Of a DNA stretch of 64,000 nucleotides, positions 1,307 through 54,971 are shown in pieces. Every line of letters begins with the position of its first letter. The stretch's first letter is position 1. The notes under the pieces were generated by a model. It was given only the letters and a program-made list of their open reading frames with translations, did no database searches and was not told where the DNA came from. Source of the stretch: Escherichia coli (lineage in GTDB: Bacteria > Pseudomonadota > Gammaproteobacteria > Enterobacterales > Enterobacteriaceae); the NCBI RefSeq assembly GCF_003334765.1, contig NZ_QOWT01000014.1; one strand, written 5' to 3'. Both the position numbers and the translations under genes were made by a program.

Positions 1307-1321
1307 ACTTCGCATTTGCAG

Positions 1322-1402
1322 GCAGGATAAGGCGTTTACGCCGCATCCGGCATTTGAGCAGGATGCCTGATGCGACGCTGATAGCGTCTTATCAGGCCTA
1401 CA
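1322..1402. repeat. REP/BIME palindromic elements (two inverted REP copies)
   Basis: ggataaggcgtttacgccgcatccggca and tgcctgatgcgacgc...gtcttatcaggccta in the cpxA-yiiM convergent gap. Confidence 0.85.
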
Positions 1403-4382: not shown

Positions 4383-5417
4383 ATGAGTAACGCGATTACG
4401 ATGGGGATATTTTGGCATTTGATCGGCGCGGCCAGTGCAGCCTGTTTTTACGCTCCGTTCAAAAAAGTAAAAAAATGGTCATGGGAAACCATGTGGTCAG
4501 TCGGTGGGATTGTTTCGTGGATTATTCTGCCGTGGGCCATCAGCGCCCTGTTACTACCGAATTTCTGGGCGTATTACAGCTCGTTTAGTCTCTCTACGCT
4601 ACTGCCTGTTTTTCTGTTCGGCGCTATGTGGGGGATCGGTAATATCAACTACGGCCTGACCATGCGTTATCTCGGCATGTCGATGGGAATTGGCATCGCC
4701 ATTGGCATTACGTTGATTGTCGGTACGCTGATGACGCCAATTATCAACGGCAATTTCGATGTGTTGATTAGCACCGAAGGCGGACGCATGACGTTGCTCG
4801 GCGTTCTGGTGGCGCTGATTGGCGTAGGGATTGTAACTCGCGCCGGGCAGTTGAAAGAGCGCAAGATGGGCATTAAAGCCGAAGAGTTCAATCTGAAAAA
4901 AGGGCTGGTGCTGGCGGTGATGTGCGGCATTTTCTCTGCCGGGATGTCCTTTGCGATGAACGCCGCAAAACCGATGCATGAAGCCGCTGCCGCACTTGGC
5001 GTCGATCCACTGTATGTCGCTCTGCCAAGCTATGTTGTCATCATGGGCGGCGGCGCGATCATTAACCTCGGTTTCTGTTTTATTCGTCTGGCAAAAGTGA
5101 AGGATTTGTCGCTAAAAGCCGACTTCTCGCTGGCAAAATCGCTGATCATTCACAATGTGTTACTCTCGACACTGGGCGGGTTGATGTGGTATCTGCAATT
5201 CTTTTTCTATGCCTGGGGCCACGCCCGCATTCCGGCGCAGTATGACTACATCAGTTGGATGCTGCATATGAGTTTCTATGTATTGTGCGGCGGTATCGTC
5301 GGGCTGGTGCTGAAAGAGTGGAACAATGCAGGACGCCGTCCGGTAACGGTGTTGAGCCTCGGTTGTGTGGTGATTATTGTCGCCGCTAACATCGTCGGCA
5401 TCGGCATGGCGAATTAA
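4383..5417 (+). CDS. rhaT: L-rhamnose-proton symporter
   Basis: 344 aa polytopic membrane protein [28 protein letters not shown]... Confidence 0.95.
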
Positions 5418-7172: not shown

Positions 7173-10185
<3,013 letters not shown>

Positions 10186-10430
10186 ACACTGCCGGATGCG
10201 GCGCGAGCGCCTTATCCGGCCTACGGGTCGGCAACAGTTGTAGGCCTGATAAGACGCGACAGCGTCGCATCAGGCATTGATTGCCGGATGCGGCACAAGT
10301 GCCTTATCCGGCCTACAGGTCGGCAATAGTTGTAGGCCTGATAAGACGCGACAGCGTCGCATCAGGCATTGATTGCCGGATGCGGCGCGAGCGCCTTATC
10401 CGGCCTACGGGTCGTGCATCCGACAACACC
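10186..10430. repeat. BIME: tandem array of about 2.5 units of a 92-bp REP-containing repeat
   Basis: ccggatgcggcgcgagcgccttatccggcctacgggtcggcaacagttgtaggcctgataagacgcgacagcgtcgcatcaggcattgattg repeats starting at 10192, 10284, 10376 with a few substitutions. Confidence 0.9.
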
Positions 10431-10451
10431 GAATTTACAGGAACACAGAAC

Positions 10452-11276
10452 ATGCAAAACATTACTCAGTCCTGGTTTGTCCAGGGAATGATCAAAGCCA
10501 CCACCGACGCCTGGCTGAAAGGCTGGGATGAGCGCAACGGCGGCAACCTGACGCTACGCCTGGATGACGCCGATATCGCACCATATCACGACAATTTCCA
10601 CCAACAACCGCGCTATATCCCGCTCAGCCAGCCCATGCCTTTACTGGCAAATACACCGTTTATTGTCACCGGCTCGGGCAAATTCTTCCGTAACGTCCAG
10701 CTTGATCCTGCGGCTAACTTAGGCATCGTAAAAGTCGACAGCGACGGCGCGGGCTACCACATTCTTTGGGGGTTAACCAACGAAGCCGTCCCCACTTCCG
10801 AACTTCCGGCTCACTTCCTTTCCCACTGCGAGCGCATTAAAGCCACCAACGGCAAAGATCGGGTGATCATGCACTGCCACGCCACCAACCTGATCGCCCT
10901 CACCTATGTACTTGAAAACGACACCGCGGTCTTCACTCGCCAACTGTGGGAAGGCAGCACCGAGTGTCTGGTGGTATTCCCGGATGGCGTTGGCATTTTG
11001 CCGTGGATGGTGCCCGGCACGGACGAAATCGGCCAGGCGACCGCACAAGAGATGCAAAAACATTCGCTGGTGTTGTGGCCCTTCCACGGCGTCTTCGGCA
11101 GCGGACCGACGCTGGATGAAACCTTCGGTTTAATCGACACCGCAGAAAAATCAGCACAAGTATTAGTGAAGGTTTATTCGATGGGCGGCATGAAACAGAC
11201 CATCAGCCGTGAAGAGTTGATAGCGCTCGGCAAGCGTTTCGGCGTTACGCCACTCGCCAGTGCGCTGGCGCTGTAA
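10452..11276 (+). CDS. rhaD: Rhamnulose-1-phosphate aldolase
   Basis: Track ORF 10281..11276 is over-extended into the BIME; start at ATG 10452 ([25 protein letters not shown]...); class II aldolase; 274 aa. Confidence 0.93.
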
Positions 11277-11285
11277 GGAGCAAAC

Positions 11286-11600
11286 ATGATCCGCAAAGCC
11301 TTTGTCATGCAGGTAAACCCCGACGCCCACGAAGAGTATCAGCGTCGGCATAATCCCATCTGGCCAGAACTGGAAGCAGTGCTGAAATCTCACGGTGCGC
11401 ATAACTACGCCATCTATCTCGACAAAGCGCGTAATCTGCTGTTTGCCATGGTAGAGATTGAATCTGAAGAACGCTGGAATGCGGTTGCCAGCACTGATGT
11501 TTGCCAACGTTGGTGGAAATATATGACCGATGTTATGCCCGCTAACCCGGATAACAGCCCGGTGAGTAGCGAGCTGCAAGAAGTGTTTTACCTGCCGTAA
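11286..11600 (+). CDS. rhaM: L-rhamnose mutarotase
   Basis: 104 aa [37 protein letters not shown]... Confidence 0.9.
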
Positions 11601-44493: not shown

Positions 44494-46317
44494 TTAATCG
44501 TCTTTCGGTGCGCGGTTGGCGCGGCGACGATCGTTTTCCGTCAGGTGACGTTTACGAATACGGATAGAGGTCGGAGTCACTTCTACCAGTTCGTCATCAT
44601 CGATGAACTCCAGAGCTTGTTCCAGAGTCATGCGGATAGGCGGAACCAGAACAACGGCTTCGTCAGTACCGGAAGCACGCATGTTGGTCAGTTTCTTACC
44701 GGTCAGGCAGTTTACAGTCAGGTCGTTAGAGCGGCTATGAATACCGATAATCTGACCTTCGTAAACTTCTGCACCGTGACCGAGGAACAGCTTACCGCGA
44801 TCCTGCAGACCGAACAGCGCGAACGCGACCGCTTTACCCTGACCGTTAGAGATCAGTACGCCGTTCTGACGCTGACCCACTTCACCCGGACGTACGTCGT
44901 CGTAGTGGCTGAAGGTGGAGTACAGCAGACCAGTACCGGAAGTCATGGTCATGAACTCAGAACGGAAGCCAATCAGACCACGGCTTGGGATCACGTAGTC
45001 GAGACGTACGCGGCCTTTACCGTCTGGATTCATGTTTTTCAGGTCGCCTTTACGTTCGCCCAGCGCCTGCATTACAGAACCCTGATGCTGTTCTTCAACG
45101 TCCAGAGTCACGTTTTCATACGGCTCTTGTTTACGACCGTCGATTTCACGGAAGATAACTTTCGGACGGGATACCGCCAGTTCGAAACCTTCACGACGCA
45201 TGTTTTCGATCAGAACAGACAGGTGCAGTTCGCCACGACCAGAAACGCGGAACGCATCGGCGTCTTCGGTTTCTTCTACGCGCAGCGCAACGTTGTGTAC
45301 CAGTTCTTTGTTCAGACGATCCAGGATCTGACGAGACGTTACGAACTTACCTTCTTTACCGCAGAACGGCGAGGTGTTAACGCAGAAGAACATAGAAACG
45401 GTCGGCTCATCAACGGAGAGTGCCGGCAGCGCTTCAACGTTTTGCGTGTCGCAAACGGTGTCAGAAATGTTCAGTTCGCCAAGGCCCGTGATCGCAACGA
45501 TATCGCCAGCTTCCGCCAGATCGGTTTCGATACGTTCCAGACCGAGGTGGCCCAGCACTTTACCGACTTTCGCGTTGCGGGTTTTGCCTTCGCTATCGAT
45601 GATAGTGACCTGCTGGTTCGGCTTCACTTTACCGCGCTTGATGCGGCCAATGCCGATAACGCCAACATAGCTGTTGTAATCGAGCTGAGAAATCTGCATC
45701 TGGAACGGACCGTCAAGGTCAACGTCCGGCGCAGGAACGTGGTCAACAATCGCCTGGTACAGCGGGGTCATGTCTTCCGCCATATCTTCGTGGTCCAGAC
45801 CCGCGATACCGTTCAGCGCAGAAGCGTAAACGATCGGGAAGTCCAGCTGCTCGTCGGTCGCGTCGAGGTTAACGAACAGATCGAATACCTGATCCACAAC
45901 CCAATCAGGACGCGCGCCAGGGCGGTCAACTTTGTTGATAACAACAATCGGCTTCAGGCCGTAAGCAAACGCTTTTTTGGTTACGAAGCGCGTTTGCGGC
46001 ATCGGGCCGTCAAATGCGTCAACCACCAGCAGCACTGAGTCTACCATGGACATTACACGTTCAACTTCACCACCGAAGTCGGCGTGCCCCGGGGTATCAA
46101 CGATGTTGATACGGTAATCATTCCATTTGATAGCGGTGTTTTTCGCGAGGATGGTAATCCCACGCTCTTTCTCCAAATCGTTGGAGTCCATCACGCGCTC
46201 TTGGGTTTCGGCACGAGAGTCGAACGTACCGGATTGTTGGAGCAGCTTGTCTACCAGGGTGGTTTTACCATGGTCTACGTGCGCGATGATGGCGATATTA
46301 CGCAATTTTTCGATCAC
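44494..46317 (-). CDS. typA: Ribosome-associated translational GTPase TypA/BipA
   Basis: 607 aa; G1 motif [21 protein letters not shown]-like domain architecture. Confidence 0.96.
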
Positions 46318-46468
46318 AACTTTGCCTCAGGCATTAGAAATAGCGCGTTATTGTACACGGATTAATCGCACTACAAAACAGGATCACAAACATCCTCCGC
46401 AAACAAGTATTGCAGAGTCCCTTTGTGATCGCTTTCACGGAGCATAAAAAGGGTTATCCAAAGGTCAT

Positions 46469-46559
46469 TGCACCAACATGGTGCTTAATGTTTCCATTGA
46501 AGCACTATATTGGTGCAACATTCACATCGTGGTGCAGCCCTTTTGCACGATGGTGCGCA
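46469..46559 (+). promoter_or_regulatory. NtrC enhancer sites upstream of glnAp2
   Basis: TGCACCAacaTGGTGCT (46469-46485), aGCACtAtatTGGTGCA (46501-46517), TTGCACgatGGTGCGCA (46543-46559) match TGCACCA-N3-TGGTGCA; centred about -140 and -108 from the predicted start. Confidence 0.7.
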
Positions 46560-48167: not shown

Positions 48168-48228
48168 CGCCGGATGCGACGCAAATGCGTCTTATCCGGC
48201 CTACACGGTGATGATGTGGTAGGCCGGA
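48168..48228. repeat. REP element in glnA 3' UTR
   Basis: gccggatgcgacgcaaatgcgtcttatccggcctac followed by partial inverted copy gtaggccgg. Confidence 0.85.
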
Positions 48229-51090: not shown

Positions 51091-51194
51091 TGCCGGATGC
51101 GGAGAAAGTCGTAGGCCTGATAAGACGCGACCAGCGCCGCATCAGGCATCATGCTCAGATGCCTGATGCGGCGTAAACGCCTTATCCGGCCTAC
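51091..51194. repeat. BIME (three REP copies)
   Basis: tgccggatgcggagaaagtcgtaggcctgataagacgcgaccagcgccgcatcaggca ... gatgcctgatgcggcgtaaacgccttatccggcctac. Confidence 0.88.
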
Positions 51195-53377: not shown

Positions 53378-53444
53378 AATGGTTCGTCTTTTAGCCGTTT
53401 TATTCAGTATAGATTTGCGGCGGAATCTAACAGAAAGCAAGCAA

Positions 53445-53480
53445 AGAAAAAAGGCGACAGATTACTCTGTCGCCTTTTTT
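53445..53480. terminator. Bidirectional intrinsic terminator (3' end of csrC)
   Basis: A-run, GGCGACAG-attact-CTGTCGCC hairpin, T-run. Confidence 0.8.
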
Positions 53481-53688
53481 CCTGACTCATAACCCTTAAC
53501 GGGTCTTACAATCCTTGCAGGCCGCCAACACACCCTGTTTTTCCTTTAGCCGGAACAATCCGTGTTGATTCCATTTCCGTTTAATTACGTCTCCGGACGT
53601 TTGTCTTCCTGACAATCCTCTGTCTTCGCCTCCTGGCGCTCCTGACCCTCATCCTGAGTCATTGTTCCTGTTAGCGTCCTCGCTCTAT
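53446..53688 (-). ncRNA. csrC: CsrC small RNA (CsrA-sequestering)
   Basis: Minus-strand sequence beginning ATAGAGCGAGGACGCTAACAGGAACAATGACTCAGGATGAGGGTCAGGAGCGCCAGGAGG... carries about 14 GGA motifs, mostly in (C)AGGA context, and ends at the terminator; lies in the yihI-engB gap. Confidence 0.8.
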
Positions 53689-54610: not shown

Positions 54611-54693
54611 GTGCCGGATGTGGCGTATCCGGCCCGTAAATTCAATAGATTACAATTCTACCGTTGGCCTGATAAACATAGCGCATCAGGCAT
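54611..54693. repeat. REP elements
   Basis: gccggatgtggcgtatccggc and ggcctgataaacatagcgcatcaggca between engB and spf. Confidence 0.8.
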
Positions 54694-54716: not shown

Positions 54717-54825
54717 TAAAAAACGCCCCAGTCATTACTGACTGGGGCGGCTAAAATATTCAGCCAAATCCGATTACGTGAAGTAAAAGGTCTGAAAGAT
54801 AGAACATCTTACCTCTGTACCCTAC
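54717..54825 (-). ncRNA. spf: Spot 42 small RNA
   Basis: Minus strand reads GTAGGGTACAGAGGTAAGATGTTCTATCTTTCAGACCTTTTACTTCACGTAATCGGATTTGGCTGAATATTTTAGCCGCCCCAGTCAGTAATGACTGGGGCGTTTTTTATT, ending in a terminator hairpin plus T-run. Confidence 0.9.
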
Positions 54826-54971
54826 GCGACTAACTTTACTCTTTTTTGTTCAGTTCAGAAAGCACTTTTTGTAATTTTTTTTCAGTTGTTGCATAGGAAT
54901 TTCTAATAGCCATCACAAAACGTGACAGCTTATGTTGCTTACTTACGAAAAAAGGCATGTTCAGGCGAATC

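Follow-up and report, generated by a model that had tools for sequence, protein, structure and literature searches.

We analyzed a 64-kb stretch of Escherichia coli DNA, referred to here as the window, and focused on the rha region within it. The stop codon of rhaA (10183–10185) and the start codon of rhaD (10452) are separated by a 266-bp spacer, most of which is occupied by an array of REP elements. Positions 9900–10700 of the window were 100% identical to E. coli H2 (NZ_CP010163.1), whose RefSeq annotation agrees on the genes, and the same segment found a match in all 5,426 complete E. coli genomes. The rhaBAD genes are co-transcribed from the rhaB promoter. Sequence prediction found no promoter-like or intrinsic-terminator-like site between rhaA and rhaD, so that an independent rhaD transcript or a hard stop at this position is unsupported. 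The genes of the region and the parts of the spacer were as follows:

4383–5417: rhaT (NCBIfam equivalog model)
minus strand: rhaR and rhaS (NCBIfam equivalog models)
7460–8929: rhaB (NCBIfam equivalog model)
8926–10185, plus strand: rhaA, L-rhamnose isomerase; stop codon TAA at 10183–10185 (NCBIfam TIGR01748, 829 bits; RefSeq annotation)
10190–10414, plus strand: tandem BIME-2 with 2.4 copies; the 92-bp unit consists of a Y REP, a 15-nt linker, an inverted Z2 REP and a 5-nt linker (TRF, repeat search, unit comparison)
10191–10224, plus strand: Y-type REP 1, GCCGGATG...TTATCCGGCCTAC (palindrome and REP pattern; RNA hairpin of −21.3 kcal/mol)
10225–10239, plus strand: 15-nt linker GGGTCGGCAACAGTT, from the CTAC of the Y REP to the GTAG of the next Z2 REP (read from the sequence)
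10240–10275, minus strand: Z2-type REP 1, inverted relative to the Y REPs; plus strand reads GTAGGCCTGATAAG... (palindrome and REP pattern; −21.9 kcal/mol)
10283–10316, plus strand: Y-type REP 2, an internal variant whose stem carries a compensatory G-C to A-T change (GGCGC/GCGCC to GGCAC/GTGCC)
10317–10331: second copy of the 15-nt linker, with two changes
10332–10367, minus strand: Z2-type REP 2, inverted (palindrome and REP pattern)
10375–10408, plus strand: Y-type REP 3, same sequence as REP 1; the sole REP remaining in the shortest (82-bp) allele
10409–10451, plus strand: unique 43-nt rhaD leader with the ribosome-binding site, mostly unpaired in the predicted fold
10452–11276, plus strand: rhaD, rhamnulose-1-phosphate aldolase; ATG at 10452, AGGA Shine-Dalgarno sequence at 10439–10442 (NCBIfam NF002963, residues 1–273 of 274; RefSeq annotation)
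11286–11600: rhaM (NCBIfam equivalog model)

The array was by far the strongest tandem repeat in the window. TRF placed it at 10190–10414 with a period of 92 bp, 2.4 copies, 93% matches, no indels and a score of 415, and a repeat search of the window recovered three in-register copies at spacings of 92 and 92 bp. Units 1 and 2 differed at 5 of 92 positions, giving 95% full-unit identity inside the window allele, and the partial third unit (41 nt) matched unit 1 exactly. Five hairpins follow one another in the order Y, inverted Z2, Y, inverted Z2, Y. The Y-type REPs read GCCGGATG...CTTATCCGGCCTAC, and the Z2-type REPs, which are longer and lie in inverse orientation, read GTAGGCCTGATAAGACGCG...CATCAGGC; the linkers between them are alternately 15 nt (CTAC to GTAG) and 5 nt (GGCA to TGCC). 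The hairpin of the middle Y REP is kept, because its difference from the outer Y REPs is compensatory. These results bear out the sequence-only reading, which had described about 2.5 copies of a nearly identical 92-bp REP unit between rhaA and rhaD, had noted that its REP palindromes are paired and alternate in orientation, and had expected the periodicity to be evident on self-comparison. Its repeat starts (10192, 10284, 10376) have the same period and differ from those of TRF by a register shift of 2 nt, and the palindromes proved to be five in number and imperfect.

The same reading had dismissed an N-terminal extension of rhaD in the list of open reading frames as an artifact of the repeat, and we agree. 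The frame at 10281–11276 is open from a TTG codon at 10281 into rhaD, which would add 57 codons translated from the repeat. That the array truly encodes such an extension of RhaD has next to no probability. The RhaD family model (NF002963) aligns from residue 1 of the protein that begins at ATG 10452, RefSeq places the start at the same codon, and the AGGA Shine-Dalgarno sequence lies 9 nt upstream of it. Furthermore, in other strains the extension changes in length or is gone, depending on copy number, while RhaD is unchanged. We rejected this frame as a spurious 57-codon extension; the rha BIME-2 accounts for the false N-terminus in naive ORF calls.

Knowledge of REPs and BIMEs goes back to the 1980s and 1990s. 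A REP is defined as an imperfect palindrome of 30–40 nt whose stem has GTAG/CTAC at its foot and contains a mismatch (Ton-Hoang et al. 2012, PMC3333891), and all five array elements have this form: they are 34–36 nt long, end in CTAC (or start with GTAG if inverted) and contain an internal mismatch. The same paper distinguishes the y and z classes by a TGCC|TGAT site that is found in z and is missing from y (Ton-Hoang et al. 2012, PMC3333891); matching this distinction, the Y REPs of the array have GCCGGATG and the Z REPs have GCCTGATG. In a BIME-2, y and z2 are inverted relative to each other, and tandem copies, joined by short linkers, differ in number among strains (Ton-Hoang et al. 2012, PMC3333891). 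In the array, GCCGGATG-type REPs alternate in inverse orientation with long GCCTGATG-type REPs, the 2.4 tandem copies are joined by linkers of 15 and 5 nt, and the copy number ranges from 0.4 to 4.4 across the sampled genomes. We take the Z REPs to be z2 in the Bachellier nomenclature, a call based on their length (36 nt, versus 29 nt for the Z REP at 24607) and on that nomenclature; the assignment is supported by the published BIME-2 listing of this locus. The array shares with BIME-1 (Y and Z1 with a long L linker that carries an IHF site) a construction from inverted REP pairs that include a Y. However, BIME-1 is single-copy, with a long conserved L linker and Z1 (PMC3333891), whereas the rha array has the long Z2 form, short linkers and tandem units. 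We concluded that the rhaA–rhaD array is a BIME-2 (a y + z2 tandem), which sharpens the earlier reading of it as a tandem BIME.

A BIME-2 is already catalogued at this very locus. The rhaA–rhaD array of K-12 is listed as ‘BIMEs2’, 401 bp, rhaA>-rhaD> (Sutormin et al. 2018, PMC6379681, table DS3). The main texts of the literature yielded nothing specific that links rhaA or rhaD to a BIME or REP, and the link was found only in supplementary table DS3; the RefSeq record of MG1655 has no REP repeat_region at the locus. Because REPs and BIMEs are long known and the locus stands in published BIME-2 tables, the array carries little weight as a discovery.

The same table reports in vivo cleavage by DNA gyrase in the K-12 array, with 4 sites under ciprofloxacin, 2 under rifampicin plus ciprofloxacin, 1 under microcin B17 and 0 under oxolinic acid (PMC6379681, DS3); these counts belong to the 4.4-copy allele of K-12, not to the 2.4-copy allele of the window. 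The interval between two of these sites, 3543204 and 3543296, is exactly 92 bp, which puts them at the same place in successive units. Cleavage in vivo at one position of successive units would fit a main role at the DNA level, in which the array is a strong, transcription-independent site for gyrase (and for further DNA-binding proteins) that would control supercoiling in the neighborhood of the inducible rha promoters, with any RNA effects being incidental. It would also fit this role that gyrase signals at BIME-2s in general go up, not down, when transcription is blocked by rifampicin. At the rha locus, however, the sites drop from 4 to 2 with rifampicin, and its count is small next to that of the strongest BIME-2s (35 sites at tldD-yhdP). 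Many BIME-2s in table DS3 have zero gyrase sites, and a gyrase-site role at the rha array comes without a linked phenotype. We therefore consider a primarily DNA-level role unlikely, if still credible.

To compare copy number among strains, as the sequence-only reading had proposed, we used a query in which 500 bp of rhaA adjoined 500 bp of rhaD without the spacer. Matches were found in 5,403 genomes, and spacer length was read in 59 of these, taken at even steps down the match ranking:

82 bp: 14 of 59 genomes
174 or 176 bp: 10 of 59 genomes
190 bp: 1 of 59 genomes
241 bp: 10 of 59 genomes
266 bp (window allele): 6 of 59 genomes
276 bp: 4 of 59 genomes
358 bp: 1 of 59 genomes
450 bp (K-12): 11 of 59 genomes
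460 bp: 2 of 59 genomes

The strains thus differ, with 0.4 to 4.4 copies in the 59 genomes. The main series of 82, 174, 266, 358 and 450 bp corresponds to 82 + 92n bp, and the representatives that we read have one Y REP in the shortest allele and then Y(-Z2-Y)n. All alleles begin with TAA-ACAC-TGCCGGATG and finish with the same rhaD leader. The off-series lengths of 276, 460 and 190 bp reflect a right flank of B2 type with 10 additional nt. The K-12 array shares with that of the window its flanks, the first and last Y REP, the Z2 REPs, the linkers and the 92-bp period; it differs in its 4.4 units and its spacer of 450 bp, and taking two internal units out of the K-12 allele gives that of the window (2.4 units, 266 bp). 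In 13 sampled genomes the 1-kb flanks were 100% identical to those of the window, yet four spacer lengths occurred among them (450, 266, 174 and 82 bp), which means that gain and loss of units outpaces point substitution in the flanks. Either unequal recombination or replication slippage between units is the probable source of the changes in copy number, perhaps with help from the REP-associated transposase TnpA-REP. The spacer therefore offers a length-polymorphic marker at a well-known locus.

Two of the alleles had unusual structures. In the 176-bp allele (GENOMIC22-004, L011:701-876) the last REP is chimeric, with the outer stem of a Y REP (GCCGGATG...TTATCCGGC) and the inner stem and loop of a Z2 REP (CGACGCTGTCGCGTC), which suggests template switching or gene conversion between neighboring inverted REPs. 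In the 241-bp allele (EA2, L006:701-941) only the first Y REP is left, and an unrelated, GC-rich inverted repeat ~160 bp long (CCCTCACCCCGGCCCTCTCCC ... GGGAGAGGGTTAGGGTGAGGGG), boxC-like in appearance, takes the place of all that follows it. This repeat was present whole in 942 of 5,426 genomes (~17%; 10 of the 59 sampled), with parts of it at 1–6 places per genome.

We examined the same slot in other species by means of a degenerate RhaD motif scan, whose listed matches were mostly Firmicutes and included no Shigella, Salmonella or non-E. coli Escherichia. Among the matches listed, the gap between rhaA and rhaD is ~10–25 nt, with no hairpin, in Yersinia, Serratia, Pectobacterium, Pantoea, Brenneria, Budvicia and Hafnia. 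In Enterobacteriaceae proper, again among the matches listed, the spacer is 35–466 nt and usually holds a palindromic repeat 4–10 nt past the rhaA stop. A Citrobacter has a single REP in this position and Pseudescherichia vulneris a REP pair; Enterobacter cloacae (L038) and Pseudocitrobacter (L096) have palindromes of the CCCTCACCCC...GGGGTGAGGG type, similar to the replacement repeat of the 241-bp E. coli allele. The 466-nt spacer of Superficieibacter electus (L030:3253-3721) contains one Y-like REP and about eight direct units of ~50 bp with a different REP (GGCCCGGTAAGCGCAGCGCCACCGGGC); this is an independent array, in which the copies share one orientation and do not alternate. The simplest reading of the recurrent filling is that an insertion would be tolerated only in the short stretch from the rhaA stop to the rhaD ribosome-binding site, and there may also be selection for a hairpin in this slot.

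A constraint on tolerated insertions would yield such a pattern even if the array were a neutral passenger, that is, selfish or junk DNA in the sole permissive slot (from the rhaA stop to the rhaD Shine-Dalgarno sequence) whose copy number drifts without meaningful effect on rha. This explanation gains from the 0.4 to 4.4 copies among strains with identical flanks, from the hairpin-free 10–25 nt spacers of the outgroups (Yersinia, Serratia, Pectobacterium, Pantoea, Hafnia), and from the unrelated palindromes that lie 4–10 nt past the stop in the same slot across Enterobacteriaceae; REP effects are, moreover, context-dependent and often absent. It loses from the presence of five hairpins of −20 kcal/mol in the mRNA, which are unlikely to leave its decay unaffected, and from the 35-fold effect on expression ratio of the analogous REP325 array (see below). 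On balance we view neutrality as a serious contender that is somewhat doubtful. It concerns selection rather than mechanism, since a neutral origin is compatible with a real regulatory side-effect.

We are highly confident in an overall explanation of the locus as a five-hairpin BIME-2 within rhaBAD, whose copy number changes by whole units among strains and whose presumed consequence is RNA-level regulation. Each REP is predicted to form an RNA hairpin of −20 to −22 kcal/mol, and adjacent Y and Z2 REPs are predicted to form, as alternatives, long joint hairpins of −44 to −54 kcal/mol. The predicted fold of the entire spacer has −143 kcal/mol (z = −7.9 versus dinucleotide shuffles). The first stem, at 10191, starts 5 nt past the rhaA stop in every E. 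coli allele examined; the last REP lies 43 nt upstream of the rhaD ATG, and the AGGA Shine-Dalgarno sequence is unpaired in the predicted fold. It is reasonable, as had been suggested from the sequence, that an array transcribed within rhaBAD could affect rhaD expression or mRNA stability. RNA-level effects, comprising mRNA protection and partial attenuation of read-through, appear to be its most likely function.

Under this explanation, induction of rhaBAD would place the array in the polycistronic mRNA, where its stable hairpins would regulate from the 3' side in two ways. By obstructing 3'-to-5' exonucleases they would let decay intermediates containing rhaBA outlast the rhaD part, and they would cause a partial and partly Rho-dependent attenuation of transcription into rhaD-rhaM. 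The expected outcome would be an expression ratio biased toward the upstream genes, the size of which would be set by the number of units. In addition, the closeness of the first stem to the rhaA stop (5 nt) may make RhaA translation terminate more slowly and reduce the yield of RhaA. Translation of an upstream gene is lowered by a REP at a distance of less than 16 nt from its stop codon, according to the summary in PMC12306157 of Liang, Rudd and Deutscher (2015), and the 5-nt gap between stop and stem at rhaA is inside this distance. The literature consulted yielded no RNA, protein or termination measurements of the rhaA–rhaD array. With about one quarter of the sampled E. coli carrying a single REP, and with the distant Enterobacterales hairpin-free, the array is unneeded for rhamnose use and may be near-neutral.

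Measured regulatory effects come from REP325, and those of the rha array are drawn by analogy with it. Like the rha array, REP325 (naRNA1-6) is a BIME-2 of Y and Z2 in tandem that lies between two genes of the same operon and direction, and the Rfam model built from it matches the rha units above threshold. REP325, a Y/Z2 array, separates the co-directional genes yjdM and yjdN, and its deletion brought the yjdM/yjdN RNA ratio from ~35 to ~1; the array produces a ladder of hairpin-ended transcripts, and bicyclomycin approximately doubles read-through, a partial sensitivity (Harris et al. 2026, bioRxiv). For fragments of 2 to 4 hairpins, Rho dependence was not detectable, and REP effects were context-dependent (Harris et al. 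2026, bioRxiv), so that an array of five hairpins may attenuate only weakly. In REP325 the hairpins number 12, the period is 100 bp and the linkers are 17 and 11 nt, whereas the rha array has 5 hairpins, a 92-bp period and linkers of 15 and 5 nt, and its orientation relative to transcription is the opposite of that of REP325. Given these differences in hairpin number, period, linkers and orientation, the size of any effect at rha is uncertain.

A second parallel is with REPs of the malE-malF type, which like the rha array lie between proximal and distal cistrons of an operon for sugar catabolism or transport. The malE-malF and other intercistronic REPs were reportedly found by Newbury and colleagues in 1987 to stabilize the upstream mRNA. 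These consist of one or two REPs, whereas the rha array is a variable tandem array.

The analogy can be carried further, to the idea that BIME-2 copy number (1 to 9 hairpins) is a heritable, fast-mutating dial of the ratio of RhaB/RhaA to RhaD/RhaM, which would give lineages their own fluxes of rhamnulose-1-phosphate and lactaldehyde, and that the recurrent filling of the slot reflects selection for a barrier between rhaA and rhaD. We consider this extension improbable. The natural allelic series (1, 3, 5, 7 and 9 hairpins) would be convenient for testing how REP number tunes expression ratios within an operon, and rhaBAD is a widely used expression system. The descriptive points that are mildly new are the allele spectrum in current genomes, the replacement allele, and the recurrent filling of the slot in other Enterobacteriaceae.

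Rfam returned only one family at the array, naRNA4 (RF02564, built on the REP325 unit). Both full units exceeded its gathering score on the minus strand (77.0 and 76.6 versus 59.5 bits), whereas on the plus strand, the sense of the mRNA, they scored 56.5 and 53.2 bits, below the 59.5 threshold. REP325 RNA has been proposed to be nucleoid-associated and to act with HU (Qian et al. 2015), and the minus-strand scores, together with this proposal, might be read as a sign that the rha array encodes a naRNA4-type small RNA that condenses the chromosome with HU. However, the matches above threshold are antisense to rhaBAD, and no promoter-like site was found on the minus strand near the array. The model also matches other Y/Z2 pairs in the window, which indicates that it recognizes a repeat family and not a gene. 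Lastly, no nucleoid compaction or REP-REP contacts attributable to REP325/naRNA4 were found in later work by the senior author of the naRNA4 proposal (Harris et al. 2026, bioRxiv). A nucleoid-associated RNA from the rha array is thus very improbable, and we rejected the naRNA4 gene call on the grounds that its matches are antisense to the operon and extend to other BIMEs.

REPs were also found elsewhere in the window. The REP tail motif CTTATCMGGCCTAC occurred 13 times, versus 0.02 expected by chance; all copies were outside large ORFs, as dispersed repeats. A query containing the repeat matched a median of 9 places per E. coli genome. A looser REP pattern recovered the five array REPs and exactly seven further REP/BIME sites in the 64-kb window:

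1318–1401
24607–24704
41131–41164
48169–48204
51111–51194
54663–54691
63825–63860

None of the seven lies in a large ORF and five are between convergent genes, in agreement with the earlier count of seven other intergenic sites, mostly between convergent genes. The site at 48169–48204 is a single REP flanked by glnA and glnL, which are co-directional; in K-12 its counterpart is listed as a BIME-2 interval with 2, 0, 1 and 2 gyrase cleavage sites (Sutormin et al. 2018, table DS3, PMC6379681). Two Y/Z2 pairs, at 1321–1398 (plus strand, 78.6 bits) and 51114–51191 (minus strand, 75.2 bits), scored above the gathering threshold of naRNA4 (RF02564). In practice, the Rfam naRNA4 family annotates BIME-2 units in general.

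Rfam gathering-score matches also marked four small RNAs, all expected in this part of the E. coli chromosome:

53435–53688, minus strand: CsrC
54717–54835, minus strand: Spot 42
46399–46506, minus strand: ES222
44441–44509, minus strand: STnc370

A SECIS_3 element (19484–19542, plus strand) lies at the junction of the ORFs at 18902–19489 and 19538–21952. It agrees with the in-frame UGA of fdoG, which encodes the large subunit of formate dehydrogenase-O, and the two ORFs are therefore one gene. Lastly, 24400–26300 is a 1.9-kb region without an ORF of at least 100 amino acids, holding the small genes yiiE and yiiF and the REP pair at 24607–24704. The six top-ranked genomes, which were 100% identical to the query, have in this region an extra ~777 bp annotated as IS1 that is missing from the window.
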